Below, one piece after another: positions 1 to 64,000 of a DNA stretch of 64,000 nucleotides; the first letter of the stretch is position 1; each line of letters begins with the position of its first letter. Below the pieces are notes generated by a model. That model worked only from the letters and a program-made list of their open reading frames with translations, ran no database searches and was not told where the DNA came from. Origin of the DNA: Methanobacteriota archaeon (lineage in GTDB: Archaea; Thermoplasmatota; E2; DHVEG-1); assembly GCA_963769885.1 (NCBI GenBank), contig CAVYNH010000006.1, positions 128,001 through 192,000 on the forward strand. The letters run 5' to 3'. A program made the position numbers and the translations under genes.

Positions 1-97
1 GATGATCCAGGCGTGTTTCATAAGGTGTCTTGGTATAGAAGTGAGAATTCAGGGTTTATAGGTTTTACTGTACAATCCTTATCTGTTCCAGGGCGGT

Positions 98-1096
98 TTA
101 GGGCAGGGGGCCCCAGGGGTGACGGGTGAAGTGCTCGTAGCCTTCGTTGGGGAGTGGAGTGGTGGTTTTCCCTTTTTTCAGGAGTATTTTATTATTTTTG
201 GTGACGGTGCCAATGCGGGTCAGCTGGCAGCCCTGGCGTTTTAGGAGGCGAAAGACCTGGAGGAATCGATCCTCTGGGAGGGTGATGAGAAGTTCGTAGT
301 CGCCGCCGAAGTGCAGGAGAAGGCGTCTCGTGTCGATATCTGGATGTCGTTTGCTTAGGAGAAGGAGTTCCTTGGAGGCCGGAAGCAAGGATGCATCGAT
401 GGTGAACCCGACGTGGTTCATCTCCTGGAGCTGGTACAGTGAGGAGGAGAGGCCGTCGGAGAGGTCCATGGAGGAGGTTACGGCGCGGCTGCGGGCGAGG
501 AGTCGGCCTTCTCGGAGCCGAGGCCAGGGCTCGAACAAGGCTTTTGTCAGGGACGGCCGGGTGTCGCCGTGCTCCAGGGCTGTATATCCAGCGCCGGCTT
601 TCCCGAGGGTGCCGGTGACGGCGACGACGTCTCCTGGGCGTGTGCCTTTCCGGGGCATGAACTCCGTTTTCTTGACGAGACCGAACGCGGTCCCACAGAG
701 GGTGACGTCCGCGGCCTCCTTGGTGTCGCCGCCGACGATGCGGGTGCCGCAGCGGCGGGCGCAGGCCATCGCCCCGGTGGTCATCTCCTTCAGGAACGTA
801 TCCGTGGTGTCGGCGGGTAGCCCGTAGGAGAGGACGAGGCCGAGCGGGGTGCCGCCTTTGGCGGCGATGTCGCTGAGGTTGACGGCAGCCAGCATCCAAC
901 CAATTTGGTATGGGGTCATCTGCTTGGCGATGTGGGTCTGCCGGGCGATGAGGTCCGTCGTCACCAGGAGATATTTGGTTCCGAAGTCGATGGCGGCGCA
1001 ATCGTCGCCAAGAAGTTCTTTACTGCCGCCTTTCGCAAGGATTTGTTCGATGCGTCTGATCGCCTGTCGTTCCCCCAGGCTGGATAGTTTCCTCAC
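98..1096 (-). CDS. thiL: thiamine-phosphate kinase
   Basis: Motifs LGDDCAAI, AVNLSDIAAKGG, GGDT, DLSDGL and GGDYELL. Start placed at GTG 1096; the ORF is open to 1126. Confidence 0.92.
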   Translation of the reverse strand: MRKLSSLGERQAIRRIEQILAKGGSKELLGDDCAAIDFGTKYLLVTTDLIARQTHIAKQMTPYQIGWMLAAVNLSDIAAKGGTPLGLVLSYGLPADTTDTFLKEMTTGAMACARRCGTRIVGGDTKEAADVTLCGTAFGLVKKTEFMPRKGTRPGDVVAVTGTLGKAGAGYTALEHGDTRPSLTKALFEPWPRLREGRLLARSRAVTSSMDLSDGLSSSLYQLQEMNHVGFTIDASLLPASKELLLLSKRHPDIDTRRLLLHFGGDYELLITLPEDRFLQVFRLLKRQGCQLTRIGTVTKNNKILLKKGKTTTPLPNEGYEHFTRHPWGPLP

Positions 1097-1191
1097 AGGT
1101 CCCTGATGTAGGTGTGCCTCCTTCAAAAAGTTTATGACAATCCGGGGGTTACAGCCTCCTAGGGAAGAGGTGAATCACTATTCCGAAGCGA

Positions 1192-2208
1192 ATGACGTAC
1201 GTCGGCGTCGGCGTTGACATTGACGAGAAAGAGAAGGCGATCGCCACCCTGCTCTCCAGCATCACGACTAGCCGGAAGGGGTTCGGTGAGCCCATGGGAG
1301 GGCACTATGCGGGGCTCATCGACTTCGGGGACTACGCGCTCGTCCTGTGCACGGATGGGGTCGGCACGAAGATCAGGATTGCGGAGGCGCTCAAGAAATA
1401 CGACACCATCGGCATTGACTGCATCGCGATGAACGTCAACGACGCCCTCTGCGTGGGCGCGGAGCCGCTCGCGTTCGTCGACTACCTCGCCATGCAGAAC
1501 CCAGACCCTGAGATCACCAGGGAGATCGGCAAGGGGTTGGATGCGGGCGCCGCCCTCTCCAATATCTCGATCATCGGCGGGGAGACCGCGGACTTGCCGG
1601 AGCTGATCAACGGCTTCGACCTCGCGGGCACTTGCCTCGCCTACGTCAAAAAAGACCGCATCATCCTGGGGAAGAACATCTCCCACGGCGACAAGATCAT
1701 CGGCCTGAGCAGCAGCGGGATCCACTCCAACGGCTACACCTTGGCCCGGAAGGTTGTGGAGAGCGCCGGGTTCAAGTACACGGACAAGTTCCCAAACAAC
1801 CTCTACTCCGGCAAGACCATCGGCGAGGTCATGCTGACACCGACCCGGATCTACGTCAAGGAGATCCTCGCCTTGCTGCAGACCGTGGACGTCCATGGCC
1901 TCGCGCACATCACGGGCAGCGGACTGTGGAACCTGCCGCGGCTCAAAGAAACGGTGCGGTACGTGATCGAAGACCCGATGCCGCCGCAGCCGATCTTCAC
2001 ATTCCTCCAGGAGCAGGGCAACATCGACAATCACGAGATGTACCAGACCTTCAACATGGGCATGGGCTTCGCCGTCATCGTCGGCGAGGAGGACGCGGAC
2101 CATGCGGTGTCCTTCCTCTCGAAGCATTCCGAGGCGAAGATCAAGAAAGTCGGCATCATCAAGAAAGGTAGCCACGTCGAGGTCCCCTCGCTCGGGTTAA
2201 CGTATTGA
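1192..2208 (+). CDS. purM: phosphoribosylformylglycinamidine cyclo-ligase (AIR synthetase)
   Basis: Motifs TDGVGTK, GIDCIAMNVND, GGETA, SSGIHSNGY, HITG and TFNMGMG. Confidence 0.96.
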   Translation: MTYVGVGVDIDEKEKAIATLLSSITTSRKGFGEPMGGHYAGLIDFGDYALVLCTDGVGTKIRIAEALKKYDTIGIDCIAMNVNDALCVGAEPLAFVDYLAMQNPDPEITREIGKGLDAGAALSNISIIGGETADLPELINGFDLAGTCLAYVKKDRIILGKNISHGDKIIGLSSSGIHSNGYTLARKVVESAGFKYTDKFPNNLYSGKTIGEVMLTPTRIYVKEILALLQTVDVHGLAHITGSGLWNLPRLKETVRYVIEDPMPPQPIFTFLQEQGNIDNHEMYQTFNMGMGFAVIVGEEDADHAVSFLSKHSEAKIKKVGIIKKGSHVEVPSLGLTY

Positions 2209-3898: not shown

Positions 3899-4435
3899 TT
3901 ACCCGCCTGCGATGACGTCCAGAATAGATTCTGCGTTATAACCGTTAATGAGTGTGAGAATCCCGAAGGGCCCCTTGTAGCTCTTGATCGAGAGGTGGAG
4001 CCAGATAGATCCTAGCCCATACGGTGGCGCATCTGGATGGACCGTGACCGTCAAGTTCACAGAGTTCACATATGGGGTCATATCGGTGATGTAGCTAGTG
4101 AGTTCAGTGTGGTCGAAAGAGGCGTTAAGCCATTCGGACTTGTTCGCAACCTCTAATGTCACGGGGAATGGTTTTCCTGATAACACTATAAGAATCCATT
4201 TACCTAGGAAGCTTCCGCGCGAAACAATCGTGCTTATGTTCACGGGAATTATCCGGGTTTCACCAGGGGGAATCGGGTGTGAGGTAATGTTCCCACTCCA
4301 GCTAATAGACCCGACGAACTGCAATCTATAGGGATTAGAACCCTCCTTCGTCGTAGCAGATGCCATCGGGGTAAGCGCCGAAACAAGCACAAGGACAAAC
4401 GTAACCAGTGTCGCCAGAACCACGTTTTTTCGCAC
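3899..4435 (-). CDS. hypothetical secreted protein
   Basis: GTG at 4435 with an upstream GGGAG, followed by a signal-peptide-like N-terminus. The longer ORF start overlaps the tRNA. Confidence 0.6.
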   Translation of the reverse strand: MRKNVVLATLVTFVLVLVSALTPMASATTKEGSNPYRLQFVGSISWSGNITSHPIPPGETRIIPVNISTIVSRGSFLGKWILIVLSGKPFPVTLEVANKSEWLNASFDHTELTSYITDMTPYVNSVNLTVTVHPDAPPYGLGSIWLHLSIKSYKGPFGILTLINGYNAESILDVIAGG

Positions 4436-4516
4436 ATTCTCCCTATAAAAGAATCCAAGGCAACGCATAAATGCTTTGCGGACAAGGTATAAAAGCCAGG
4501 GAGAAAAGAAAGAGAG

Positions 4517-4630
4517 TAGCGGGGAATGGATTTGAACCATTGATCTACGGGTTATGGGCCCGTCGGGATTTCCTGACTACCCTACCCTTCTAGGCAGGAC
4601 CAAAGAATCAGTCTCCGAATCCTACTCGCT
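4517..4630 (-). tRNA. initiator tRNA-Met(CAT) with a 39-nt intron at position 4/5 (intron 4588-4626)
   Basis: Spliced sequence AGCG|GGGTAGGGTAGTCAGGAAATCCCGACGGGCCCATAACCCGTAGATCAATGGTTCAAATCCATTCCCCGCTA (75 nt). It has an A1-U72 pair, three G-C pairs closing the anticodon stem and a TTCAAAT T-loop. Confidence 0.9.
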
Positions 4631-4696
4631 ATGGAGGGCAGCCGCGGTGTTCTCCTTTCTGGACCGCTACTGACTCGATGGGGAATATCTTCATCG

Positions 4697-4704
4697 TACT
4701 TAAA
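4697..4704 (-). promoter_or_regulatory. probable TATA box of the tRNA-iMet precursor
   Basis: TTTAAGTA on the minus strand about 70 nt upstream of tRNA position 1, implying a leader of roughly 45 nt. Confidence 0.5.
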
Positions 4705-4778
4705 GCTAACACACATCCACATCAGAGGTGGGGAAACATTTAAACGAAACCAACGAATAAAACTCCCGTGAGGAGAAG

Positions 4779-4979
4779 ATGGAAAAGCCGATTACTCAGC
4801 GTCACCTCGTCCCCCGACAGTCCACCTCACCGTGCCTCTGCATCGGCTGCAACAAGATGATCCCGGCCAACGAAGTCTACTACGCCGAAGAAGGCGTAGG
4901 AGTCCACCTCCACAGCCTCGTCGCACGCCGATTCTGCTACCGCTGCTACAGCATGCACGGCGAAAAACTCATCGCCTAA
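4779..4979 (+). CDS. small putative zinc-binding protein
   Basis: 66 aa with CIGC and CYRC pairs; GTGAGGAG SD; TTTAAA box upstream. Confidence 0.65.
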   Translation: MEKPITQRHLVPRQSTSPCLCIGCNKMIPANEVYYAEEGVGVHLHSLVARRFCYRCYSMHGEKLIA

Positions 4980-5053
4980 AGACCCGGGGGCTGGCCAGGG
5001 AGAAAAGATTTTTCAGACGCCTGGTGATGTCTCCAGCACACCACCACATGACT

Positions 5054-5169
5054 GCAGGGGTACCCGAGCTTGGTCCAAGGGGCAGGGCTTAGGAGCAACC
5101 GCAACACCAACTGTGGGCGAAGAGACCCTGTTGCGTAGGCACTCGAGCGTTCAAATCGCTCCCCCTGCA
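5054..5169 (+). tRNA. tRNA-Leu(TAG) with a canonical 37/38 intron (5094-5124, 31 nt)
   Basis: Acceptor GCAGGGG/CCCCTGC-A, anticodon arm CAGGG-CT-TAG-G|A-CCCTG, long variable arm, TTCAAAT T-loop and BHB bulges GG|A and AG|A. Confidence 0.93.
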
Positions 5170-5263
5170 CTCCAATCCTTTCTTTTCAAGGCGTAAAGAC
5201 CACACAAGAACCTTTAATAAACCATCACTCTCTTTCCTGCTGAAAAAGAGGGACGAAGCAGCC

Positions 5264-5818
5264 TTGAAAGTCATCATCTTCACCGGGATGCCCTTCGCCG
5301 GCAAATCCATCGCCGTCGACGTCGCCAAAGCCAAAGGCTACCCCGTCATCCGCATGGGCGACTTCGTCTGGGAAGAGACCCGCAGACAAGGCAAGCCCCT
5401 CACCGCCGAGGACGTCGGCGAGGTCGCCAACACCATGCGCGACACCCAGGGCAAAGACATCTGGGCCCGACGCGCCGCCGACGCCCTCAAACGATACAAA
5501 CGCCTCCCCCTCGTCATCATCGACGGCGCTCGCAACCCCGAGGAGATCGCCTACTTCAAGCAGGCCCTCGGCCCGGAATGCTACGTCGTCGCCATCGTCG
5601 CACCCGCCGAAGTCCGCTTCGAGCGCGCCCAAGAACGCGGACGCGTCGACGACAGCCCCATGCATGCGGACATCGAAGAGCGAGACCAGCGCGAGACCCG
5701 TTGGGGACTCCCCCAGGTCATCGCCGCTGCGAACTACACCATCAGCAACGACGGCAGCGTCGTCGCTTTCCAGACCCAAGTCGAAAAAATCCTCAAACTC
5801 CTCGCCTCCCGACGATAA
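5264..5818 (+). CDS. UPF0200-family P-loop nucleotide kinase (dephospho-CoA kinase-like)
   Basis: Walker A TGMPFAGKS, plus MGDFV, IDGAR and ERDQRE..WG. Confidence 0.8.
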   Translation: MKVIIFTGMPFAGKSIAVDVAKAKGYPVIRMGDFVWEETRRQGKPLTAEDVGEVANTMRDTQGKDIWARRAADALKRYKRLPLVIIDGARNPEEIAYFKQALGPECYVVAIVAPAEVRFERAQERGRVDDSPMHADIEERDQRETRWGLPQVIAAANYTISNDGSVVAFQTQVEKILKLLASRR

Positions 5819-5918
5819 TCTCTGTCTTTTTTCTAATAAAGAACAGGAGTTTTCCCTAAGAAAATTTATTAACTAGGTTTTATTATTAATTCAGTTGAAA
5901 AGGTCGGAGGAAATGAGT

Positions 5919-7700
5919 ATGGCTTGGGGAAAGCTGAGGGTAGTTACTATTTTCATCATTCTAAGTATTCCGTCATTCTTTTCGCCAACCCTCGCGTTTT
6001 CTTCATCCATCAATAATTCACAATCCAATCCGGCTCACAATGAGCTTTCAGGCTCGAATTCTTCTTGGCCGATGTATTGCCATGATTCTCATCACACTGG
6101 ACGAAGCCCCTATTCCACCGCCAACAATCCTCCAGATCACATCAAATGGGTATTCAACACAGGCAAAGTAAGCTTTTATGGAGATACCTCGATTGGTGCC
6201 GACGGAATGATATATGCGGCGGCCAATGGCTTATTTGCAGTGTGGCCTAATGGGACGTTGAAATGGTATTTTCCAGTGAATGGATGGTGTGAAGGTTGCC
6301 CAGCAATCAGCGACGAAGGGATCATTTATCTCGGATGCTCAGGAGGCGGTAGTACTAGTTATTTGTATGCGTTATATCCGAATGGTCAATTAGAATGGCG
6401 GTATGGAGTAGGGGGCGAAGAAATAAAATCATCGCCTGTTATCGGGACTGAGGGCACAATTTACTTCGGCACAGGTGGAGGTTATCCAATTAAAGGATCG
6501 ATTACAGCACTGTATCCAAACGGGACGCTTAAATGGAAGTATCCAACGAACTATGTCGTCTACTCATCACCGGCAATCGGGAATGACGGAACGGTGTATT
6601 GCGGTTGCCATGATTCAAATCTTTACGCCTTCTACCCGAACAATGGATCCTTAAAATGGAAGTATAAAACTGGGAATTGGGTCCGACTTAGCCCCTGCAT
6701 CGCCGATGACGGCACCATCTACTGTGTTTCAGACGATGAATATCTGTATGCCTTGCGTCCCAACGGGACCCTGAAATGGAAAACCAAAGTCGAACCAGGA
6801 GGATCGCCTACGATCGCCTCCGACAGCACCATTTACGCAGGGATGAGCACACTCTATGCGATAAGTCCCGGTGATGGTTCGGTGAAATGGACGTTCCCCG
6901 TCGGAGGAGACATAATGTGGAGCGCTGCCGTTACCTCCGCAGAAGGAACCATCTACTTCGGGATGACCACCTCGGGTTTCGATGGCTATCTTATCGCCGT
7001 GAACCCAAACGGCACCGAGCAATGGAGGACGGAAATCGGTCACTGTGAATCAGTCCCCGCGATCGCCACGGATGGTACCGTCTACATTGGATCAACAGAT
7101 GAACCCGACGCAACAGGGTTTCTGAATGCCTTCGGCCCAGGGGGGCCGCTCCGAGCAATGGCGAACGGACCCTACCAAGCCTTTTACAATCGGACCCTCC
7201 AATTCAAAGGCACAACCTACGGCGGCTTCCCACCCATGACGTACCATTGGGACTTCGGCGACGGAAACACCTCAGACCAACAAAACCCACAACACACGTA
7301 TCACGCCCTCGGGTGCTTCCATGCGACCTTCACCGTCACCGACTCTCAAGGCAACACCAGCAACGACACCGCCTCTGTCAGCGTCTATGCAGACTTACCT
7401 ACTTTGACTATTACTCGACCGGAGAACGCCCTCTACTTCCGAGATAAAAAGATCCACTCATGGGTATGGCCCGTCGCCATCGGCAAGATCACCTTCCAAG
7501 CAACCGCCTTCCAAGAGCCCTACGGCATAGATTGCGTCGAATTCAGCGTCGACGACAAACTCATCGCCACAGACAACGAAGCGCCCTACGAATGGACCTG
7601 GACGACACCTGCCTTCGGCTACCACGTAGTCACTGTCACCGCTCGCGATACCATGGGGTATAGCACAAGCAAAAGCATCGAGATGAAGAAGTTCTTCTAA
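5919..7700 (+). CDS. secreted PQQ-like beta-propeller repeat protein with PKD and Ig-like domains
   Basis: Signal peptide, WPMYCHD..HTGRS, repeated SSPAI..DGTIY..LYAL.PNGTLKW units, PKD YHWDFGDG, C-terminal D.EAPYEW.W. Start uncertain (5895-5919). Confidence 0.85.
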   Translation: MAWGKLRVVTIFIILSIPSFFSPTLAFSSSINNSQSNPAHNELSGSNSSWPMYCHDSHHTGRSPYSTANNPPDHIKWVFNTGKVSFYGDTSIGADGMIYAAANGLFAVWPNGTLKWYFPVNGWCEGCPAISDEGIIYLGCSGGGSTSYLYALYPNGQLEWRYGVGGEEIKSSPVIGTEGTIYFGTGGGYPIKGSITALYPNGTLKWKYPTNYVVYSSPAIGNDGTVYCGCHDSNLYAFYPNNGSLKWKYKTGNWVRLSPCIADDGTIYCVSDDEYLYALRPNGTLKWKTKVEPGGSPTIASDSTIYAGMSTLYAISPGDGSVKWTFPVGGDIMWSAAVTSAEGTIYFGMTTSGFDGYLIAVNPNGTEQWRTEIGHCESVPAIATDGTVYIGSTDEPDATGFLNAFGPGGPLRAMANGPYQAFYNRTLQFKGTTYGGFPPMTYHWDFGDGNTSDQQNPQHTYHALGCFHATFTVTDSQGNTSNDTASVSVYADLPTLTITRPENALYFRDKKIHSWVWPVAIGKITFQATAFQEPYGIDCVEFSVDDKLIATDNEAPYEWTWTTPAFGYHVVTVTARDTMGYSTSKSIEMKKFF

Positions 7701-7808
7701 AAAGTATCTTCTCCGATACCTGCTCTGGCTTGCTTCAAGTACTTTTTTCTCCTGGAAAGCGAAATCTTAATTACCCATCCACCGTTGAGGCGCCCAGGGG
7801 CATTCGGC

Positions 7809-8060
7809 ATGTACGAAGCACACGTCACCATCACTCTTAAAAAAGGAATCTCAGACCCCGAAGGCGCTAACACCCTCAAAGCCCTCCACCTCCTCGGATT
7901 CACCGACGTCAAAAGCGCCTCCACCATCCGCACCTTCAACATCACCGTCGACAGCACCGACAAGAAAAAAGTCGAAGCCGACGTCGAACAAATGTGCCAA
8001 CGCCTGCTGACCAACCCCGTCATCCACACCTACACCATCACCGTCACACCAACAAAATAA
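7809..8060 (+). CDS. purS: FGAM synthase subunit PurS
   Basis: LKKGISDPEG and LLTNPVIH motifs; directly upstream of purL. Confidence 0.93.
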   Translation: MYEAHVTITLKKGISDPEGANTLKALHLLGFTDVKSASTIRTFNITVDSTDKKKVEADVEQMCQRLLTNPVIHTYTITVTPTK

Positions 8061-8090
8061 CACCAAACTTAGGAGGGGGAACGAACGCTC

Positions 8091-10442
8091 ATGCACCTCG
8101 ACAACCTCTTCACCAAACGACCAGGACCAGACGACGTCTACGAAATCAACGTCAAAGACGCCACCGACCAAGACCTCCAGCAAATCAGCGACCAGCTCGG
8201 CCTCGCCCTCGCCCTCCCCGAAATGAAACGCATCCAAACCTATTTCAACGACCGTCACCGCCACCCCACCGACATCGAACTCCAAGCCCTCGGCCAAGCC
8301 TGGAGCGAACACTGCTGCTACAAATCCAGCAAAGTCCCGCTCAAGAAATACGTCTTCAACGTCGACGAACAACGCATCATCGCCCGCGAGGACGCCGGCG
8401 TCATGGACTTCACCGACGACTACTACTACTGCGTCGCCCTCGAATCCCATAACCATCCGTCAGCCATCGAACCCTACGGAGGCGCCGCCACCGGCATCGG
8501 CGGCATCGTCCGCGACGTCGTCTGCATGGGCGCCCAGCCCATCGCCTTCGTCGACCCCCTCTTCTTCGGACCACTCAACACCCCGCAGAATCAATTACCG
8601 AAGGGCGTCAAGCACCCCCGGTATCTCATGAAGGGTGTCGTCGACGGTATTCGTGATTACGGTAACAGAATCGGCATCCCGACTGTGACCGGCCAGGTCA
8701 CCTTCCACGACGGCTACACCGGCAACTGCCTCGTCAACGTCGGCTGCCTTGGCATCATGAAGAAAAAAGAACTCATCCATTCCTGGGCCACTGCCCCCGG
8801 CGAAGTCTATATCTACGTCGGCGGTAAAACCGGCCGCGACGGCATCCACGGCGTCACCTTTGCCTCAGCAGAATTAACGGAGAAAAGCGAGGAGAGCAGC
8901 AGATCAGCGGTCCAAGTCGGCGACCCCATCACCAAAGAACCCGTTATCCACGCCTGCCTCGAAGCTAACCGCAAAGGACTCCTCCAAGGATTCAAAGACT
9001 TCGGCGGCGGCGGACTGTCCTGCGTCAGCGGCGAACTCGCCTACAGCAACAACCTCGGCGCCGAAATCCACCTCGACGACGTCCCCCTCAAAGCCGAAGA
9101 CCTCAAACCCTGGGAAATCTGGGTCAGTGAAAGCCAAGAACGCATGATGCTCGTCGCCAAACCCCAGCATGTCCAAGAAATCCTCCACATCTGCAAACAA
9201 TGGGACGTCCCAGCCGCAGCCGTCGGCCACGTCATCAAAGACCCCGCCATCCGCGTCTTCATCCACGGCCAAAAAATCCTGGAGATGGACTTGGAATTCA
9301 TGACCGGCGGCCCCATCTACGACAGCTGTCAGCGCCCCTACACGATCCCCCAACCCGCCGAACAAGACACCCCAGTCCCGCAGCCAAAAGATCTGAACAA
9401 GACGCTAACAAAACTCCTCTCCTCACTCAACATCGCCAGCAAGGACTGGGTCATCCGCCAATACGACCACGAAGTCAGAGCCAACACCGTCATCAAACCC
9501 CTCCAAGGCAAACTCGGCTCCGAGACCCACGGCGACGCCGCCGTCATCCAACCCCTCGAACACTCCTACAAAGGCATCGCCCTCACCGCCGACATCAACC
9601 CCCGCTACATGGAGCGCCACCCCTACTGGGGCGCCGCCAGCGCCATCGACGAAGCCTGCCGCAACCTCACCGCCGTCGGCGCACGACCCGACAGCCTCCT
9701 GGACTGCCTCAACTTCGGCAACCCCGAAAAACCAGAACGCATGGGCGAACTCTATGAAGCCTGCCGCGGCCTCGGCGACATGGCACGCGCCCTCGACCTC
9801 CCCTTCGTCTCCGGCAACGTCAGCCTCTACAACCAATCCACCAAGACCGCCGTCCCACCCACCCCCGAGATTATGGGCGTCGGCATCGCCGACGATATCC
9901 GTCACTGCACCACCAGCGACCTCAAAGCCGAAGGCGACAGTCTCTACCTCATCGGGAGGAAGACCGACAACGAACTCGGCGGCAGCGAATACTACGCCCT
10001 CCTCAAACACAACAGCGGAAAAGTCCCCCGCACCGACCCCGCCCTCCTCAAAGCCTGCATCAATGGACTCCTCACCGCCATGAAATCAGACCTCATCGCC
10101 GCCTGCCACAACCCCAGCGAAGGAGGCCTCGCCGTCGCCCTCGCCGAGATGACCATCGGCGGAGACCTCGGCGCCACCATCGACCTCACCAGTCTTGGCG
10201 ACCTGCGCAGCGACCTCCTCATGTTCAGCGAAACCAACACCCGCTGGCTTGCCGAAATCCACCCAGACCACCAGAAAGACTTCGAAACAACCCTCAAAGA
10301 ACACCATGTCCCATTCACAAAGATCGGCACCGTCACCGGAAACCGGCTCATCATCACCAAAGGCAAGAAACCCCTCATCGACCTCCCCATAAGCACCCTA
10401 CGGGACAGCTGGAAGAAGACGCTCTGGGATTATATGGGATAA
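8091..10442 (+). CDS. purL: FGAM synthase subunit PurL
   Basis: Motifs WSEHCCYKSS, ESHNHPS, TGRDGIHG, SESQERM, LNFGNPE and SGNVSLYN. Confidence 0.96.
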   Translation: MHLDNLFTKRPGPDDVYEINVKDATDQDLQQISDQLGLALALPEMKRIQTYFNDRHRHPTDIELQALGQAWSEHCCYKSSKVPLKKYVFNVDEQRIIAREDAGVMDFTDDYYYCVALESHNHPSAIEPYGGAATGIGGIVRDVVCMGAQPIAFVDPLFFGPLNTPQNQLPKGVKHPRYLMKGVVDGIRDYGNRIGIPTVTGQVTFHDGYTGNCLVNVGCLGIMKKKELIHSWATAPGEVYIYVGGKTGRDGIHGVTFASAELTEKSEESSRSAVQVGDPITKEPVIHACLEANRKGLLQGFKDFGGGGLSCVSGELAYSNNLGAEIHLDDVPLKAEDLKPWEIWVSESQERMMLVAKPQHVQEILHICKQWDVPAAAVGHVIKDPAIRVFIHGQKILEMDLEFMTGGPIYDSCQRPYTIPQPAEQDTPVPQPKDLNKTLTKLLSSLNIASKDWVIRQYDHEVRANTVIKPLQGKLGSETHGDAAVIQPLEHSYKGIALTADINPRYMERHPYWGAASAIDEACRNLTAVGARPDSLLDCLNFGNPEKPERMGELYEACRGLGDMARALDLPFVSGNVSLYNQSTKTAVPPTPEIMGVGIADDIRHCTTSDLKAEGDSLYLIGRKTDNELGGSEYYALLKHNSGKVPRTDPALLKACINGLLTAMKSDLIAACHNPSEGGLAVALAEMTIGGDLGATIDLTSLGDLRSDLLMFSETNTRWLAEIHPDHQKDFETTLKEHHVPFTKIGTVTGNRLIITKGKKPLIDLPISTLRDSWKKTLWDYMG

Positions 10443-10524
10443 CCAAGAAAAACACGGCCCCCTCTCCCTTCCTTTTTATAAATACGCGATATCCTTAAAA
10501 CAATCAGCGCGTTATCTGTTGGCA

Positions 10525-11580
10525 ATGATGACCACTGACCAGGTCCGAAAGAGGGATACAGTGAAGAACGAGAAGAAAAATCTCCTCAGCCGTCCCATCA
10601 AGCACATCGACATCACCAGCTTCAACGCCATCCCCATCATCGAAGCCTTCGACAATATGGCGTTCCAATCCCGCAACCTCGCCAACGCCGCCCACATCTA
10701 CAACATGATGCTCGAGGACAAGGACTGCACCGTCATCCTCTGCCTCGCCGGCTCCCTCGTCAGCGCTGGCCTCAAGAAAGCCATCATCAACCTCATCCAC
10801 CACAACATGGTCGATGCCGTCGTCTCCACCGGAGCCATCGTCGTCGACCAGGACTTCTTCGAAGGCCTCGGATTCAAACACTACCGCGGCCAGATCCAAG
10901 TCGACGACACCAAGCTGCAGCAGCTCGCCGTCGACCGCATCTACGACACCTATATCGACGAGGACCAGCTGCGCATCTGCGACATGACCGTTAAAAAGAT
11001 CGCGGATGGCCTCGACCCACGGCCGTACTCCTCCCGGGAATTCATCGTCGAGATGGGCCGGTACCTCAACGAGCATCACGCGAACGCCGAGTCCTTCGTC
11101 CTGGAGGCGTACCGCCAACAGATGCCCATTTTCGTCCCCGCATTCTCAGACTCCAGTGCCGGCTTCGGTCTCGTCGCCCACCAGACCGAGAAGAAACAGA
11201 AGCATGTGACCATCGACTCGGTCCAGGATTTCCGGGAGCTCACTAGCCTGAAGGTCGCCTCGAAACAGACGGGCCTCTTGATGATCGGCGGCGGCGTCCC
11301 CAAGAACTTCGTGCAGGACACGGTCGTCGCGGCGGATATCCTCGGTGAAAATGCGCCTATGCACAAGTACGCGGTGCAGCTGACGGTCGCGGACGAGCGC
11401 GACGGCGCCCTCTCCGGCTCGACGCTGAAGGAGGCGAACTCTTGGGGCAAGGTCGACACCGGCCATGAGCAGATGGTGTACGGTGAGGCCTCGATCCTGT
11501 TCCCCCTGCTGGCCAGCTACGGGTACCATAAGGGAGCCTGGCGGCAGCGCAAGCCCCGGAAGCTCAACACCTTGTTTTAG
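10525..11580 (+). CDS. deoxyhypusine synthase family protein
   Basis: Motifs DRIYD, PIFVPAFSDSS, GGGVPKNF and DGALSGSTLKEANSWGKV. Confidence 0.88.
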   Translation: MMTTDQVRKRDTVKNEKKNLLSRPIKHIDITSFNAIPIIEAFDNMAFQSRNLANAAHIYNMMLEDKDCTVILCLAGSLVSAGLKKAIINLIHHNMVDAVVSTGAIVVDQDFFEGLGFKHYRGQIQVDDTKLQQLAVDRIYDTYIDEDQLRICDMTVKKIADGLDPRPYSSREFIVEMGRYLNEHHANAESFVLEAYRQQMPIFVPAFSDSSAGFGLVAHQTEKKQKHVTIDSVQDFRELTSLKVASKQTGLLMIGGGVPKNFVQDTVVAADILGENAPMHKYAVQLTVADERDGALSGSTLKEANSWGKVDTGHEQMVYGEASILFPLLASYGYHKGAWRQRKPRKLNTLF

Positions 11581-11621
11581 GTGCAATCATTAATATAGGG
11601 GGAGATTTCTCCGTTTCTCCT

Positions 11622-12428
11622 GTGACTTCGGCAGAGGGAAAGCTTTTGGCGCTGCGTAACCGGCTGCGTGGGCTACGTCGGGTCGCGGTCGCTTATTCCG
11701 GGGGGTTGGATAGCTCGTTTCTCTTGACGGTCGCGGTACAATCCCTTCCTGATAATGTCTTGGCGATTACTCTTGTGTCTGCGGCGCAGCCGTCCCAGGA
11801 TATTGATGGGGCATGTGCGTATTCGGCCAGCCTTGGCATCCCGCATCGGGTGGAGAATGTCGACGTGTTCGCAATCCCTGGATTTGTGGAGAACTCGCCG
11901 CAACGGTGCTACTTCTGTAAGAAAGAGGATTTTCTGCTGGCCAAGCAGGTCGCGGCCGCCGAGGGTTTCGATGTGGTGTGCGATGGGAGTACTTCGGATG
12001 ATACCAAGGATTTTCGCCCGGGGATGAAGGCATCTCGGGAGTTGGGCATTCTGAGTCCGTTGCTTGAGGTCGGGTTGACGAAGGCGGAGGTCAGGGTGTT
12101 GGCGAAGTCGTTGAGGATGCCGCAGTGGGATCGGCCGGCATCGCCGTGTCTGGCGTCGCGGATCCCGTATGGGACGCGGATCACGCCGGAGATGCTTCGG
12201 CAGGTGCAGGAGGCGGAGGCGGTGCTGCATCGGTTAGGGATTCTAGAGGTTCGCGTGCGTCATCATGGGACGGTGGCGCGGCTTGAGGTGCCGCGATCGC
12301 AGTTTCCTGTTGTGCTTGAGCATTCTGAAGAAATTGTTACCGCTTTAAAGGCACTTGGTTTCGCCTATGTCACTTTGGATATCGAGGGGTTTCGGTCGGG
12401 GAGTCTCAATGAGGTGATGTCGCGGTGA
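11622..12428 (+). CDS. larE: ATP-dependent sulfur transferase LarE
   Basis: PP-loop AYSGGLDS, plus RCYFCK, DFRPG, SPCLASRIPYG and GFRSGSLN. Confidence 0.92.
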   Translation: MTSAEGKLLALRNRLRGLRRVAVAYSGGLDSSFLLTVAVQSLPDNVLAITLVSAAQPSQDIDGACAYSASLGIPHRVENVDVFAIPGFVENSPQRCYFCKKEDFLLAKQVAAAEGFDVVCDGSTSDDTKDFRPGMKASRELGILSPLLEVGLTKAEVRVLAKSLRMPQWDRPASPCLASRIPYGTRITPEMLRQVQEAEAVLHRLGILEVRVRHHGTVARLEVPRSQFPVVLEHSEEIVTALKALGFAYVTLDIEGFRSGSLNEVMSR

Positions 12429-13153: not shown

Positions 13154-13159
13154 TTTCGT

Positions 13160-13909: not shown

Positions 13910-13915
13910 ATGTCT

Positions 13916-45903: not shown

Positions 45904-45906
45904 TCA

Positions 45907-47817: not shown

Positions 47818-47927
47818 CCCGTATCGCATTCTTTGGCAGATGTTTCAGGAGATAAAAAGTACCGAACATGCTCGATAGAATTATAAAGGATCCCGAGCTT
47901 TGAAATTGTGGTTGGGGGAGCAAGAAA

Positions 47928-48074: not shown

Positions 48075-48121
48075 CGTCTGTGTTGGCATAGAAAAGGAAG
48101 AGGTATCGGGGAGGAGAATAT

Positions 48122-58591: not shown

Positions 58592-59512
58592 CTAGAACGG
58601 GTACTGCTTCCCCAACGCTTCTAACGACGACAACGCGGCCACCGCCCCCGACGCACACGCGGTCACAATCTGCCGCACCCCACCCGTTAGATCACCCGCC
58701 GCATACACCCCAGGCACACTCGTACGCCCAAACCGGTTCACCACCACATACCCCTCCCCATCCACCTCCACCCCCAACCCTTTGATCAACGTGTTCTGCG
58801 GCACCCACCCAATCGAAATGAACACCCCATCAACAGACAGCGTCGACGCCTGCCCCGTCTCCGCATCACGCAACGCCAACCCCCTCACCACCGAATCCCC
58901 CACAATCCGCTCCACCACCTTGTTCAACAGGATCTTCACCTGCTTCTCACGCGCCTGCGTCACATACACCTGCTCAGCCCGCACCTCCAGCCGCCGATGC
59001 ACCAAAAACACCTCCTTCACCCCAATCTGCTTAAGAAACACGGACTCCATCAATGCGGTGCTCCCACCGCCGATGACAGCAGCCGTCTTCCCACGGAAGA
59101 AAAACCCATCGCACGTCGCACAATACGACACCCCTTTCCCCAAAAACTCCTTCTCACCCGCAATATCCATGGTCTTATGCTCCGTCCCCGTACAAAACAA
59201 CACCGCCCCCACCACGTACGACCCCTTCGTCGTCCTCACCCGAAACCCCTTCCCCTCACGAGCCACCCCGGTCACCTCCTCGTACAAATGAGGCTGGACA
59301 TACCTCCCCGCATGATGCTTAATCCTCTCCATCAACTCCGCCCCCGAGATCGACTCAAACCCCGCATAATTCTCCACATTCGGCGACAACACCGCACGAC
59401 CACCACCATCACCGCGATCAAACACCGCGACCTTCAACCCAGACCGCACCGCATAAATCGCCGCAGAATACCCCGCAGGACCAGCACCAACAATCGCCAA
59501 CTCATACTCCAT
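58592..59512 (-). CDS. trxB: thioredoxin-disulfide reductase
   Basis: Motifs GAGPAG, GVSYCATCDG, GGG.TA, HRR and GVYAAGD. Confidence 0.93.
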   Translation of the reverse strand: MEYELAIVGAGPAGYSAAIYAVRSGLKVAVFDRGDGGGRAVLSPNVENYAGFESISGAELMERIKHHAGRYVQPHLYEEVTGVAREGKGFRVRTTKGSYVVGAVLFCTGTEHKTMDIAGEKEFLGKGVSYCATCDGFFFRGKTAAVIGGGSTALMESVFLKQIGVKEVFLVHRRLEVRAEQVYVTQAREKQVKILLNKVVERIVGDSVVRGLALRDAETGQASTLSVDGVFISIGWVPQNTLIKGLGVEVDGEGYVVVNRFGRTSVPGVYAAGDLTGGVRQIVTACASGAVAALSSLEALGKQYPF

Positions 59513-59582
59513 ACCCTCACCCAATAACCGCACTTCTCTTATAACTTACCATTTCCCCGAGAAAAAACCGCCCAAACACCAT

Positions 59583-60275
59583 CTACACGCCACGCAGCCC
59601 ACACCGCTTCACCAACGGCCGGACTGCCCCCAACATCTCCTCCAACACCGCCCTCGGATACGGCACCGCCCCCTCCAACGACGCGTCCATCAACGGCCGC
59701 ACCGGTTTGAACTGCTGAAGAAAATAACACGCCGAGCCCTCCAGCCACCGCCCAATCCCCACCACATCACTCAGCGTCACCAATCCAGGAACGACCGTCG
59801 TGCGAAACTCATACGCCGGCGCGCACTCACGAACCACCCGGACCGACCGCTCAATGAGAGTGACGGGGACATCTATCCCGGCTACCTTCGAGTACTTCTC
59901 CAGAGGCGCCTTCACATCCATCGCCACATAATCAACCAACCCCTCACTCAGCAACCCCCCCAACCGTTCCGGAAACATCCCGTTCGTATCCACCTTCACC
60001 AGGAACCCAAGATCCTTGACCTGCTGCAGAAAAAACCCGAGATCCTCCTGCATCAACGGCTCGCCGCCGCTGACCACCACAGCCTCAAGACGCCCTCTGC
60101 GTTGCTGAAGAAAACCAAGCACATCCTCCACTGGAATAAGCGGGCCCGACCCGAGGACCATGTCCCGATTATAACAATACGGACAACGGAACGGGCATCC
60201 CGTCGTCCACACGATCGCACTCAGATGGTCCGGGTAATCCAGCAGCGACGACGGCTGAAACCCACCGATCCTCAT
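59583..60275 (-). CDS. nrdG: anaerobic ribonucleotide reductase activating radical SAM protein
   Basis: Motifs SLLDYP, CPFRCPYCYN, SGGEP, DTNG and EFRTT; downstream of nrdD. Confidence 0.92.
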   Translation of the reverse strand: MRIGGFQPSSLLDYPDHLSAIVWTTGCPFRCPYCYNRDMVLGSGPLIPVEDVLGFLQQRRGRLEAVVVSGGEPLMQEDLGFFLQQVKDLGFLVKVDTNGMFPERLGGLLSEGLVDYVAMDVKAPLEKYSKVAGIDVPVTLIERSVRVVRECAPAYEFRTTVVPGLVTLSDVVGIGRWLEGSACYFLQQFKPVRPLMDASLEGAVPYPRAVLEEMLGAVRPLVKRCGLRGV

Positions 60276-63200
60276 ACCGCCGGCACAAGCACCTTCTCAC
60301 GCAGCGTGAACGTCCGACGGTCCCGAAACTCCTGCTGCTTCCCCTTGTTCCACTGGTTCACCGGCCTGATGTACCCGACGACCCGAGAGTAGACCTCACA
60401 CTGCGTCGTCTTCTGCTCCGCCGCACACCGCGGACACTGTGGATGCTCCCCCGAGATATACCCATGGTCCGGGCAGACGCTGAACGTCGGCGTGATCGTA
60501 TAATACGGCAGCGTGTAGTTCTCCGCGATCTTGCGCACCAGCTTCTTCACCGCGGTCGGCGACGGATCCTCCTCCCCGACGAAGATATGCAACACGGTGC
60601 CGCCCGTATACTTCGCCTGCAACGAGTCCTGCAGGTCAAGGGCCTCGAAGACATCGGTCGTGTACCCCACCGGCAGCTGCGTCGAGTTCGTATAGTACGG
60701 CTCGACATCCCGCCCGCGGTTCTGCGAGTACATCTCCTGATTGTAGATGCGCATATCTGGATAGGTTTTCCGATCTATCCTCGAGAGCCGATAGGACGTC
60801 CCTTCGCCAGGAGTCGCCTCAAGGTTGTACATATTCCCGGTCTCATTCTGATATTCAAGAATCCGCGCACGCATATAATCAAGAACCTTCTCAGCAAACG
60901 CTTTGCCCTCTTTGCTCGCTATACTGGTGTTCATGAAATTCAGGAGCGCATCGTTCATGCCGATCAAGCCGATGGTCGAGAAGTGGTTCTTCCAATACTC
61001 CCCGAATTTCTTCTTGACATCAGAGAGGTAGAACCTCGAGTATGGATGTAGGCCGCTATCCGTGAGGTTCTCGATGAGGTCACGCTTAATCTCTAGACTC
61101 TGCCTCGCTAACATCATGACCTTATCGAGACGCTGGAAGAAATCATCATCGTTTTTCGCAAGATGTCCTATCCGTGGCATGTTCAATGTGACGACACCGA
61201 TGGACCCGGTTTTTGGGTTCGCTCCAAAAAGGCCGCCTCCGCGTTTCTTGAGTTCGGTGTTCGATAATCGAAGCCTACAACACATACTTCGAACATCTTC
61301 TGGCTTCATGTCGCTATTAATGAAGTTACTGAAATAGGGAATGCCGTATTTCGCGGTCATGTCCCAGAGGGGTGCGAGACCATCGTTGTCCCAGTTGAAG
61401 TCTTTGGTGATGTTGTAGGTGGGGATGGGGAAAGTGAAAGGGCGACCCTTAGCGTCGCCTTCGTACATAATCTCGGCGAAGGCGCGGTTAATCATATCCA
61501 TCTCATCGGTGTATTCAGCATAGCCATTGTCAAGCTCTTGGCCGCCGACAATCGCGGCCTCATCTGTGAGGCAGTCGGGGACAGTGAGGTCCATGGTAAT
61601 GTTCGTGAACGGGGAATTATGATAGAAGACGAGCCCGGTGCTTCCTGCAAAGTTCTCAACGCCGTCCTCGCTCTGCACAGAGATATCGTATTCCCAATCC
61701 CAGTCCAGATTGTAATCGTCGATCTGATAAACAGGAATCCCTGCAGTATTCCCAAGAACCATGGTGAGTTCCTTTCTTGGGTTCGGATAGATGAGGAGGG
61801 TGCCTGCCCGTCCTTGGCTCTTGGCGGTAGCGCGGATACGCCAGTTTTGTGCCGTGCAGAGGACTGCGAGGGAAGTTAGGAGTTTATCGGACATGGAGCT
61901 GTACGTGATACGATGGGAGCCTTCGTCGATATATCCGTCTCCTTTCACCAGCTCGTCTATGAAGAGCGCGCGAAGTGCCGGGGAGAGATTAAAGACAAAT
62001 GAAGGAATAGTCTTTTCGCGCGAGGAAGCACCTGCGATGTATGGGAGCATATATGCGTAGAGTCCGCTGAGGGCGACATCGGCAATGACGGTTTCGGTGG
62101 GTTTCTTTTCTTTCGTGCTGTAACCATGAGTTTCCGTGATCGTCGGAGCCATTTTCAGCCCACTGACAAAGGCGATGATCGGTTTGACGTTTTTCATACG
62201 CTGTGAAATCACGACGTTGGCTCCGGTTACCTTTCCTTCTGAAATGAACCAGGCGGTGAGTCTGATAAAATCCTTGAGGGCATCACCTTCCAAGAATCGT
62301 TCATAGAATTTCTTGTTGTATGGCTTGATGTACAGTTTTTCGCCTTTAATGACACCATCAGAGTAGGTTCGATAGATGTCATAAGGCAAGGTATTGTTCT
62401 TGAACCCTTCATAAAGCGTCTTTCTATCATGTCTTCCATTCTTATACAAGAATTCCTTGAGTGATCCGTAAAGGGTCAGGATTTTCTTTTGAATATGCGG
62501 TACTTCATCGGAGACGACGAAGATCCTTTTTCGAATGGTATCCGGAAGCTCCTCCACAACGTCGAAAAGATCGAGACTTGGGGAGTCGCCCAACATATCT
62601 TTTCTGAGCCTATTGACGGCAACAACATGGTTATCGTCTGAGAGTGCTCCGTTCGGCGTAGCAGTCTTCAACTGCTGTGCTTCAACGGGTTTGATTTTCG
62701 ACTCTTCGAACCTAAAGAGGGAATGGGCAGGGGATACAAGGACTTCCCCACAGCCGGTACGAATCCTCTTGAATTTTTGAGATTGGATCTTGTGCTTGAT
62801 GAATGCTCTGACCGGGAACCAGTCGATCTCGCCCTTTTTATTAAACGAAATAACCTCGACAGTGTCAATTGGTGGTACCGCATATGAGTCAGGAGATGGA
62901 GTGCCATAGCCGTCAATATTCTGCACGATGTCTTTACGGTTCTTGCCGAAGGTTTCCTCGACCAGTTTGCCGATGAGCTCGACCTTGATTTTTCCGTTCC
63001 TCCGGATGACAATTGGTTCACTGGGAGCAAGTGACTGGAATCCGACCCGGGTTGGGACGTTCATGTTGAAGAGGAACTTCTGCATCTCCTGTTTGACGCC
63101 GTCGTAGTTGAGTTGGTCTTTGTCGATGAAGGGGGCGAGGAAGGAGTCGAAGTTGGAGAGGGCTTGGGCGCCCGCGGCTTCGCCTTGTAGGGTGTAGAGG

Positions 63201-63838
63201 TAGTTGACGATCTGCATGAGGGCGGTGCTGAAGTGTTTGGCGGGTTTGCTTTCGATCTTTCCGGATACTCCCCGGAAGCCTAGTAAAAGGAGATCCTTGA
63301 GATCCCATCCGATACAGTAGGCACCAAGTGTGCCGAGATCGTGAATGTGATAGTCTCCTTTGGTGTGTGCCTCGCCAATCTCGGGCGGGTAGATCTTGTT
63401 GAGCCAGTAGTGGGAGATGATGCTTTCCGTGGCGTAGATATTGAGTCCTTGGAGGGAGTAGCTCATGTTGCTGTTTTCGTTGACTTTCCAGTCGAGCATG
63501 CCAAGGTAGTCGTCGACGACGTCGATGTCTTTGAGCAGGCCGCCGATCTCGCGCATGTCTTGGTGTTGTTTGCGGTAGAGGATGTAGGCTTTGGCGGTCT
63601 TGGCGTGGCCGTCTTCGATGAGGATTTTTTCGACGACGTCTTGGACTTGTTCGACGGTGGGGATGTCGCCGCGTTTGAGGTCTTTTTCGAGTTGTTGGAT
63701 GACTTTGTCGGTGAGCTCTGCGGCGCGTTTGTAGTCTTTGCCGCCGACAGCCTGGGCTGCCTTCCAGATGGCGTCGGTGATTTTGATAGGGTTGAAGTCG
63801 ACGACGGTGTCGTCTCGTTTGCGTATCTTGCGTATCAT
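60272..63838 (-). CDS. nrdD: class III (anaerobic) ribonucleoside-triphosphate reductase containing an intein
   Basis: N-terminal ATP-cone, HIHDL, SMCCRL, EATPGEG, YTGGT and glycyl-radical YSRVVGY. Confidence 0.95.
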   Translation of the reverse strand: MIRKIRKRDDTVVDFNPIKITDAIWKAAQAVGGKDYKRAAELTDKVIQQLEKDLKRGDIPTVEQVQDVVEKILIEDGHAKTAKAYILYRKQHQDMREIGGLLKDIDVVDDYLGMLDWKVNENSNMSYSLQGLNIYATESIISHYWLNKIYPPEIGEAHTKGDYHIHDLGTLGAYCIGWDLKDLLLLGFRGVSGKIESKPAKHFSTALMQIVNYLYTLQGEAAGAQALSNFDSFLAPFIDKDQLNYDGVKQEMQKFLFNMNVPTRVGFQSLAPSEPIVIRRNGKIKVELIGKLVEETFGKNRKDIVQNIDGYGTPSPDSYAVPPIDTVEVISFNKKGEIDWFPVRAFIKHKIQSQKFKRIRTGCGEVLVSPAHSLFRFEESKIKPVEAQQLKTATPNGALSDDNHVVAVNRLRKDMLGDSPSLDLFDVVEELPDTIRKRIFVVSDEVPHIQKKILTLYGSLKEFLYKNGRHDRKTLYEGFKNNTLPYDIYRTYSDGVIKGEKLYIKPYNKKFYERFLEGDALKDFIRLTAWFISEGKVTGANVVISQRMKNVKPIIAFVSGLKMAPTITETHGYSTKEKKPTETVIADVALSGLYAYMLPYIAGASSREKTIPSFVFNLSPALRALFIDELVKGDGYIDEGSHRITYSSMSDKLLTSLAVLCTAQNWRIRATAKSQGRAGTLLIYPNPRKELTMVLGNTAGIPVYQIDDYNLDWDWEYDISVQSEDGVENFAGSTGLVFYHNSPFTNITMDLTVPDCLTDEAAIVGGQELDNGYAEYTDEMDMINRAFAEIMYEGDAKGRPFTFPIPTYNITKDFNWDNDGLAPLWDMTAKYGIPYFSNFINSDMKPEDVRSMCCRLRLSNTELKKRGGGLFGANPKTGSIGVVTLNMPRIGHLAKNDDDFFQRLDKVMMLARQSLEIKRDLIENLTDSGLHPYSRFYLSDVKKKFGEYWKNHFSTIGLIGMNDALLNFMNTSIASKEGKAFAEKVLDYMRARILEYQNETGNMYNLEATPGEGTSYRLSRIDRKTYPDMRIYNQEMYSQNRGRDVEPYYTNSTQLPVGYTTDVFEALDLQDSLQAKYTGGTVLHIFVGEEDPSPTAVKKLVRKIAENYTLPYYTITPTFSVCPDHGYISGEHPQCPRCAAEQKTTQCEVYSRVVGYIRPVNQWNKGKQQEFRDRRTFTLREKVLVPAV
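61616..63034 (-). mobile_element. intein with LAGLIDADG-type homing endonuclease (473 aa)
   Basis: GFQ|SLAPSEPI ... GLVFYHN|SPF junctions, block B VSPAHSLF, block F EYDISV, and LAGLIDADG-like LTAWFISEG and LVKGDG; visibly lower GC. Confidence 0.92.
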
Positions 63839-63880
63839 GGGTGTTCCATCTCTCCTCAATTTTGGTCTGCGTTTTGGTTG

Positions 63881-64000
63881 CTAGGGTTTGGTTAGGTTGT
63901 GAACTTCTTGTTCGAAGTGGGTGATGTCGGTGAAGGATCGGTAGACGGAGGCGAACCGGATGTAGGCGACCTGGTCGAGTTCTTTGAGGCAGTCCATGAC
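63881..64000 (-). CDS. nrdR: transcriptional repressor NrdR, C-terminal fragment at the window edge
   Basis: Manual translation [39 protein letters not shown]; immediately upstream of nrdD. Confidence 0.88.

Follow-up and report, generated by a model that had tools for sequence, protein, structure and literature searches.

Alternating strand-skew domains of 2-9 kb along a Thermoplasmatota chromosome

The genome of a Thermoplasmatota archaeon (assembly G000, 2.09 Mb in seven contigs) is a mosaic of 2-9 kb domains in which a given DNA strand is rich either in G and T or in C and A. We describe these domains from a 64 000-nt stretch of contig C6 (C6:128001-192000), called the window here, and from the rest of the genome and its relatives; positions given without a contig name count from the start of the window. 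A persistent, positional, strand-asymmetric bias acts at neutral sites. Under it, keto bases (G, T) at the neutral sites of one strand in each domain give way to amino bases (C, A), and a general GC drive is superimposed. The skew is set mostly by the DNA segment; gene direction is a smaller term, coding strands being C/A-rich on average. The positions of the domains have been maintained since before the species of the genus split. An earlier note, made by reading the window, had proposed a positionally fixed strand-asymmetric process at the DNA level. That proposal is borne out by skew at synonymous and intergenic sites, by opposite-strand neighbours that share it (r about +0.4), by ramps within genes, and by its recurrence at matching positions in related species, in three assemblies made independently.

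Size and axis of the skew

In 1-kb windows, GC skew along the window ranges from -0.54 to +0.58, and AT skew is opposite in sign. Genome-wide, the standard deviation of 1-kb GC skew is 0.24 against ~0.04 from sampling, about six times expectation, and the absolute GC skew exceeds 0.3 in 25% of 1-kb windows. The two skews are anticorrelated (r=-0.78 genome-wide), so the axis is G+T versus C+A. The index used below is a third-position keto-amino index, calculated per gene for the + strand or for the coding strand and positive where G and T prevail. Its standard deviation among genes is 0.39, against 0.066 expected.

The earlier note had placed the skewed stretches by eye, and most of them stand. 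C and A prevail on the + strand at 7-11 kb (GC skew -0.22 to -0.29, AT skew +0.21 to +0.32), 33-38 kb (GC skew -0.34 to -0.49) and 52-60 kb (-0.27 to -0.54). G and T prevail on it at 12-14 kb (+0.40), 27-31 kb (+0.21 to +0.37), 46-48 kb, 63-64 kb and 41-45 kb, where GC skew is as high as +0.58. A further C/A stretch that it gave as 17-26 kb is strong only to ~21 kb, and weak at 21-26 kb.

The skew is concentrated at codon position 3, where the GC skew of window genes (GC3 skew) runs from -0.84 to +0.82. Values for + strand genes include purL -0.73, M32 carboxypeptidase -0.84, larB +0.82 and eno +0.51. At four-fold degenerate sites a strongly skewed strand reaches 75-91% C; purL has 81% C, 10% A, 6% G and 3% T, and a neighbouring gene has 91% C. 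Intergenic spacers track the skew of their flanks (r=0.71), with a mean of ±0.25-0.28 within strong domains. Codon positions 1 and 2 correlate with position 3 (r=0.67 and 0.37), and protein content follows the skew, Thr+Pro+His with r=-0.52 and Gly+Val with r=+0.54. The reshaping of proteins that the earlier note described is evident against proteome values: Thr+Pro+His makes up 38.8% of HycI and 24.7% of the NosD-like protein (proteome 15.3%), and Gly+Val 26.4% of LarB and 27.5% of TrxB (proteome 14.0%). Because the skew is present at synonymous and intergenic sites and spills from there into proteins, it is a DNA-level substitution bias under purifying selection, and not a sequencing artefact or codon-level selection.

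Amplitude depends on base composition. The root mean square skew climbs from 0.12 in genes with third-position GC content (GC3) below 0.3 to 0.57 above 0.85. High GC3 (~0.8) is also found without skew, in the eRF1, beta-CASP, NfeD and Band7 genes.

Position and gene direction

The earlier note took the skew to be independent of gene direction. The positional part of this holds; full independence does not. The orientation of the gene itself accounts for about 15% of the variance (19% with six neighbours on each side), and 914 genes have a coding-strand GC3 skew lower than -0.2, against 294 with one higher than +0.2. The mean coding-strand index is -0.17 overall and -0.26 in resident genes.

The effect of position is seen in neighbouring genes. 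The + strand skew of adjacent opposite-strand genes correlates with r=+0.43 for divergent and r=+0.38 for convergent pairs, compared with 0.69 for same-strand pairs. As the earlier note had described for purL, M32, larEBC and eno, + strand genes of the window are of both signs. C/A-rich are purL, the deoxyhypusine synthase (DHS) gene, Dph6, RNase HII, RsmB, Xth and M32; the G/T-rich ones are larE/B/C, eno, translin, two TBP genes and a 2-hydroxyacid dehydrogenase gene. Genes on both strands of the 52-60 kb domain have a common + strand C/A bias, as the note had rightly said of 54.5-60 kb, so that the coding-strand index is -0.65 to -0.82 in + strand genes (Ogg, MFS, HycI) and +0.35 to +0.76 in - strand genes (HypF, TrxB, NrdG). 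Within the spc ribosomal-protein operon the coding-strand index goes from +0.26 (L14, L24) to -0.71 (S8, L6, L32e, L19e) and to +0.59 (S5, L30).

Conservation between species

The relatives are sediment Thermoplasmatota metagenome-assembled genomes of the SG8-52 / SM1-50 (MBG-D) kind. Those compared include G001 (same genus), L021 (a metagenome contig), the L149/L150 contigs, G003, G014, G016, G017 and G018. Four-fold sites are close to saturation in all of the nearest ones found, which are L149/L150 (77-83% nucleotide identity), L021 (78% amino-acid identity) and G001; none nearer than about 81% in nucleotide identity was obtained.

For 15 L021 orthologs, the coding-strand index matches that of the window with r=0.97, including the ramp at 37.8-42.5 kb. 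G001 is collinear over ~230 kb, where 137 orthologs give r=0.73 and 47 of the 48 pairs with strong skew have the same sign in both genomes; its amplitude is seemingly lower (standard deviation of the coding-strand index 0.29 versus 0.39 in G000). L149, a third species, is similar to G000 in skew pattern. Four-fold identity in conserved codons is only 13-18% above compositional expectation, that is, these sites are ~83% randomised. A pattern kept in the same place despite such randomisation implies a locally biased substitution process in each lineage, since a relic or a one-off event would have decayed.

Other genera of the family are skewed in their own places. Skew in G014 and G016 has a standard deviation of 0.35-0.37 and a pattern unrelated to that of G000 (r about 0), so the skew is not gene-intrinsic. 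For the domain at 33000-37780, the sign matches in L021, G001 and G014 and is opposite in G016. One contig of G016 (C91:1-46966, GC 35-38%) carries a single domain, 27 kb or more in length, which is independent of gene direction and weakens gradually over 45 kb; genera thus differ greatly in the scale of their domains. G003 and G018 have no domains. Among 94 related loci, purine loading is typical and keto skew is strong in few lineages, rising with GC content.

The earlier note named two observations that would speak against its reading, switch points at inversion breakpoints and skew explained by coding strand alone. Neither was found. No inversions are seen in the ~230 kb compared with G001, and ramps lie inside collinear genes. 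When the sister species is aligned, the sharp steps at 16.8, 32 and 51.9 kb fall at the junctions of indels or islands.

Domain shape and transitions

Autocorrelation of the skew falls to zero at 2.8 kb, has a minimum of -0.24 at 5 kb and is weakly positive at 13-14 kb. Spectral power is maximal at periods of 10-20 kb, with none above 50 kb.

Transitions are of two types. The first is the intragenic ramp, noticed earlier in the DHS gene and in gpmA, where it runs on across the ABC genes (37.8-42.5 kb, within a 5-kb ramp at 37.5-42.5 kb), and found also in NrdD. The second is the sharp step in AT-rich intergenic DNA, as at 16.75, 31.9 and 51.85 kb. Genome-wide, 116 sharp steps go from G/T to C/A (downward) and 49 in the opposite direction. 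Divergent junctions or promoters hold 65 of the 116 downward steps, and convergent ends 23 of the 49 upward ones. The C/A bias of genes is stronger at the 5' end than at the 3' end, by ~0.1 on average, and position in a directon (first or last gene) predicts little of the skew. Transfer RNA loci have a mean step of -0.24, with 47% below -0.3 and 9% above +0.3 (p=0.02), irrespective of tRNA direction. The tRNA-Met (4.5 kb) and tRNA-Thr (33.2 kb) genes of the window are both at downward transitions.

Young DNA is unskewed even within strong domains. This applies to the island at 47.7-51.7 kb, to the PQQ/PKD insertion and to both inteins found. The PQQ/PKD gene is missing between the same neighbours in L149 and has an 81%-identical paralog at C7:556613-558209; it looks like an inserted or recently duplicated surface-protein gene that has only partly acquired the skew of its domain. 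The NrdD intein (~470 aa) has a ...VFYHN|S junction at its C terminus, contains LAGLIDADG-like blocks and matches PF14528 weakly at 61856-61972. It is lower in GC and almost without skew, unlike both exteins, and the sign change of the gene lies ~0.7 kb from it. The second intein has weak PF14890 matches and interrupts a ~830-aa gene; here too the intein is unskewed, in a host gene that is strongly C/A-rich.

Proposed mechanism

Tentatively, we attribute the skew to strand-polarised recombinational repair filtered by NucS, the link to NucS being one that we infer. NucS prefers G-T, G-G and T-T mismatches, has markedly little activity on A-C, and keeps homeologous recombination in check (PMC8228993). 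In the scheme we propose, recombinational or gap repair would start repeatedly at the same intergenic sites, for which AT-rich promoters, tRNA loci, the edges of islands and the origin are putative examples. To either side of a start site the same strand would always be resected and resynthesised, or be in heteroduplex. If NucS/EndoMS then cuts G·T, G·G and T·T and hardly A·C, C or A put into the polarised strand would escape and G or T would be removed. The outcome would be a keto-to-amino drive with its polarity mirrored across each start site, and transcription direction would supply a smaller added term. With 5' resection and fill-in, a start site is predicted to have G/T to its left and C/A to its right. 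The commoner sharp step has this polarity, which is also found at tRNA loci and at the origin. The likeness to the bacterial GRINS (see below), the rise of skew with GC3 and the lack of skew in islands and inteins also speak for repair or recombination.

NucS is the only mismatch-repair gene found in G000; it adjoins orc1/cdc6. MutS domain V was found in none of the 19 genomes of the family that were searched, G000 included. The earlier note had also suggested patterned exposure of single-stranded DNA; this, or strand-specific resynthesis, is viable. Simple loss of deamination repair was considered as a cause and rejected, as G000 and G001 both have UDG, EndoV and NucS and the distribution of these genes among relatives does not track the skew.

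Several observations weigh against polarised repair from fixed start sites. In same-orientation stretches, the ratio of downward to upward steps is 41:23 at a threshold of 0.7 and 11:10 at 0.9, and is reversed at 0.5; much of the excess of downward steps can be put down to an orientation term that is stronger at gene 5' ends. The largest skews are often several kb from the nearest sharp step. A common motif was not seen on reading the three step sequences (16.75, 31.9 and 51.85 kb), no motif search having been made. A mirror-image flip is missing from both intein sites, although these should in the past have been cut by a homing endonuclease. NucS is also present in the unskewed relatives G003, G017 and G018, so it is not sufficient, and its presence without MutS does not discriminate.

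Taking the NucS filter at face value, the domains could be the footprint of a keto/amino-biased gene conversion, arising because A·C, A·A and C·C mismatches escape NucS in tracts of heteroduplex or of strand-polarised repair. This is a possibility that we put forward with more reserve than polarised repair itself, and the force would be a previously unrecognised one. If so, the skew profile maps where recombinational repair begins and in which direction it runs, and the force is strong enough for genome-wide recoding of proteins. A mismatch blind spot would then be tied to genome composition, and recombination initiation in organisms without a culture could be read from their sequence alone.

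Alternative explanations

A footprint of replication fork polarity is an unlikely cause in our estimate, and it has the geometry in its favour. It supposes many preferred initiation sites not marked by origin recognition box (ORB) elements, for example recombination- or transcription-primed, with leading and lagging synthesis leaving opposite keto/amino biases, so that steps are initiation and ramps termination. Sharp steps at AT-rich intergenic DNA and ramps in genes resemble fork-direction profiles; with the polarity of the step at the canonical origin, forks would run in the direction of the gene for some three quarters of those with strong skew; and the long G016 domains disregard gene direction. 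The Haloferax volcanii origin is reported at the maximum of cumulative third-position GC skew, which is the same polarity (PMC12999951). The step at the canonical origin of G000 (+0.73 to -0.22) has the polarity of most sharp steps and is local and downward, as at many other intergenic sites.

This origin, outside the window, consists of ORB-like elements GAGTGGAAAC and TTCCAGTGGAAA flanking an A/T tract of ~60 bp, directly upstream of one of the two Orc1/Cdc6-like genes in the genome. The exact ORB core TCCAGTGGAAA is intergenic genome-wide only here, at C6:261.9 kb, and so at no other switch point. One-mismatch intergenic matches are few; as a class they do not track the switch points, and none is in the window, so an ORB with an AT-rich unwinding element at each switch point is not what is seen. 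Skew on the replichore scale is absent, the mean index being -0.03 over the 200 kb left of the origin and +0.02 over the 200 kb right of it. Skew linked to the origin does not extend beyond about 5 kb, and polarity switches are by no means limited to origin and terminus. With a single ORB origin and no replichore-scale skew, canonical replication does not write the domains, and the many closely spaced replication initiation zones that the earlier note offered as an example find no support. Fork polarity would require ~160 or more fixed initiation sites per 2 Mb, which is unprecedented in archaea. It also sits badly with the near symmetry of upward and downward steps within directons, with the lack of spectral power above 50 kb, and with peak skews that lie beside ramps instead of sharp steps.

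Asymmetry from transcription or R-loops is rather improbable as the main cause. It would act by strand exposure or transcription-coupled repair, antisense and read-through transcripts included. In a self-reinforcing form the G-rich strand stabilises RNA:DNA hybrids and composition serves as an inherited memory, which would account for segment-wise inheritance, arbitrary sign and unskewed young DNA. The C/A-rich average of coding strands, more marked at 5' ends, and the placing of steps at divergent promoters and convergent ends agree with a role for transcription. The sign of the skew does not follow the coding strand, however: orientation leaves most of the variance unexplained even with six neighbours on each side (R2 is 0.15 for the gene alone), the co-transcribed spc operon flips sign twice, and the minority sign is found in 294 genes and is that of eno and the TBP genes. 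If deamination of the exposed non-template strand were at work, coding strands should be G/T-rich, which is contrary to most of those here.

A relic mosaic, in which an ancestral replichore-scale skew was cut into blocks by many small inversions, is largely refuted, and we give it very little weight. The long domains of G016 and the sharp steps at indel or island junctions relative to G001 would suit it; but inversions leave coding-strand skew unchanged, yet co-oriented genes of one operon carry both signs, signs change gradually inside genes, no inversions are seen against G001, and a skew of ±0.9 that nothing maintained would by now be down to about ±0.15.

Selection on codon choice or mRNA (two codon dialects) and assembly or sequencing artefact are refuted for practical purposes: two codon classes are present and C/A-only mRNAs cannot self-pair, but intergenic DNA is also skewed, signs flip within single genes, opposite-strand neighbours share DNA-strand skew and not mRNA skew, four independent assemblies (G000, G001, L021 and L149) have the same pattern, and protein sequence is spared (Pfam E-values down to 1e-171).

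Comparison with known systems

The phenomenon is closest to GRINS (genetic repeats marked by intense skew in their nucleotides), described in 2021, but is not made up of repeats and is genome-wide. GRINS have intense correlated GC and TA skews that change within ~1 kb and are strongest at third positions, shift proteins between Gly/Val/Cys/Trp and Pro/Thr/His/Gln, and are associated with gene conversion (PMC8256042). They are defined as duplicated regions of >500 bp and >80% identity, lie mostly in polyketide synthase genes, and are commonest in Streptomyces; the paper proposes no mechanism and makes no mention of mismatch repair or archaea (PMC8256042). The domains here have correlated skews with mean absolute GC and TA skew above 0.15 (absolute GC skew 0.2-0.58 per kb), third-position concentration, and the Gly/Val versus Pro/Thr/His shift. 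They are not duplicated: no skew domain has a second copy in the genome, the weakly skewed PQQ/PKD gene (6063-7701) being the one stretch that does. They are single-copy housekeeping DNA covering most of the chromosome in 2-9 kb units, conserved in position between species. Streptomyces relies on NucS, not MutS/L, and biased conversion of the kind proposed above would, if real, explain GRINS as well, those of antibiotic gene clusters included.

Replication strand asymmetry, of the bacterial leading/lagging and archaeal oriC kind (PMC12999951), has in common with the domains the G+T versus C+A axis, the action at neutral sites and the independence of gene direction. The amplitude here is about ten-fold larger, the scale is 2-9 kb and not the replichore, and there is no genome-wide switch at the ORB origin. 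Human skew N-domains have sharp steps at discrete sites with gradual ramps between, positional and not genic. Our domains likewise consist of steps and ramps and are positional, but their scale is a hundred-fold smaller, their sharp steps are opposite in polarity to human origins, and the step asymmetry is largely gone in same-orientation stretches. The heavy/light strand asymmetry of animal mitochondria leaves one strand nearly without G and T at four-fold sites, with gradients, and is attributed to deamination of C and A in lasting single strands. That is a single small strand-displacement replicon, in contrast to many alternating domains in a 2-Mb chromosome, and the 81-91% C with 5-10% A found here is far past what transitions alone give.

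Two further processes leave partial likenesses. Transcription-associated asymmetry has a counterpart in the modest orientation term, whose majority sign is opposite to that of non-template-strand deamination. The rise of skew with GC3 is as expected if both come from conversion, as in GC-biased gene conversion, which in its classical form is strand-symmetric.

Archaeal chromosomes are generally held to have weak skews driven by gene orientation (PMC12999951). A literature search of incomplete coverage found no published account of such domains in them. Whatever its cause, the force is strand-specific, very strong and without an accepted mechanism. It alters the amino-acid make-up of housekeeping enzymes two-fold or more, and it confounds codon-usage, horizontal gene transfer and phylogenetic models for these lineages.

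Gene calling

The identities and strands of 37 calls in the window were verified by Pfam. Genes were called genome-wide with a five-class codon model, which was correct for 27 of 27 Pfam-verified genes in leave-one-out; the 1853 genes called include all 27. Calling by open reading frame (ORF) length or by a dinucleotide model of positions 1 and 2 was rejected, being right for 13 of the 27, because antisense frames of C3-rich genes resemble G1-rich coding sequence. Antisense ORFs are almost as long as real genes and reach ~490 aa, which defeats gene finding by ORF length. The codon-model caller missed HypE; this gene is overlapped by a 384-aa antisense ORF.

Features of the window

The domains and other mapped features are collected in Table 1.

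Table 1. Skew domains, transitions and other features of the window, followed by features elsewhere on contig C6 (prefix C6:); index values are for the + strand
Feature	Position	Strand	Remarks
G/T domain	1-1126		Index +0.3 to +0.5; spans one - strand gene
C/A domain	4230-5930		Starts beside tRNA-Met
tRNA-Met	4516-4591	-	
PQQ beta-propeller/PKD/Big_7 gene	5895-7700	+	GC3 0.56; 5' part little skewed
Strong C/A domain	7130-11070		Index -0.5 to -0.88; PurS, purL, 5' half of DHS gene, all +
Gradual sign change	11070-11520		Within DHS gene, -0.72 to +0.08
Strong G/T domain	11520-14130		+0.36 to +0.88; larE, larB, larC (+), one - strand gene
Sharp step, G/T to C/A	16683-16825		-1.11 between flanking 150 codons; AT-rich divergent promoter region; synteny edge versus G001
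C/A domain	16870-20970		Fading, -0.84 to -0.3; PNP (-), Dph6 (+), OPT (-)
Near-neutral stretch	20970-26400		-0.25 to +0.1; eRF1, beta-CASP, NfeD, Band7; GC3 ~0.8
G/T domain	26400-31770		+0.3 to +0.8; eno, 2-hydroxyacid dehydrogenase, translin, two TBP genes (+), one - strand gene
First TBP gene	29836-30375	+	In tandem with the second
Second TBP gene	30391-30942	+	
Step region	31789-33281		Divergent promoter at 31.8-32.1 kb, weak C/A, then tRNA-Thr
tRNA-Thr	33208-33281	-	
Strongest C/A domain	33000-37780		-0.5 to -0.96; RNase HII, RsmB, Xth, M32 carboxypeptidase, all +
Near-linear 5-kb ramp	37780-42500		-0.96 to +0.96; gpmA, ABC, ABC-2 (+), 3' part of NosD-like (-); kept in L021
G/T domain	40820-47690		Peak +0.96 at 42.5 kb, weak at 44.6-45.9 kb; NosD-like, HAD, DNA methylase, all -, coding strands C/A-rich
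Unskewed low-GC island	47690-51690		GC 0.45-0.52; no ortholog in the G001 stretches examined
Sharp step, G/T to C/A	51743-51944		-0.93; divergent promoter; kept in G001, where the island 47690-51690 is absent
C/A domain	51945-60900		-0.3 to -0.96; Ogg, MFS, HycI (+); HypF, HypE, TrxB, NrdG, NrdD 3' end (-)
Hydrogenase maturation cluster	54807-58585		HypF (-), HypE (-), HycI (+)
HypE gene	56695-57870	-	
NrdD gene	60272-63859	-	-0.56 at 3' end to +0.92 at 5' end
NrdD intein	~61622-63034	-	
Second intein	C6:231374-232655	+	
nucS	C6:259505-260320	-	
orc1/cdc6	C6:260359-261630	-	
Canonical origin	C6:261,740-261,925		L151:2740-2925

Beside the tRNA-Thr gene, G001 has an extra 8-kb block of unskewed genes (C24:52091-59737) without counterpart in G000. 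The tRNA-Thr site is likely a mobile-element integration site. The hydrogenase maturation cluster adjoins Ogg, TrxB and NrdG/NrdD. Of the tandem TBP genes, the second has a full double-repeat match (7.7e-60) and a G001 ortholog that is 98% identical; the first has a weaker match (7e-28) and a G001 ortholog that is 67% identical.

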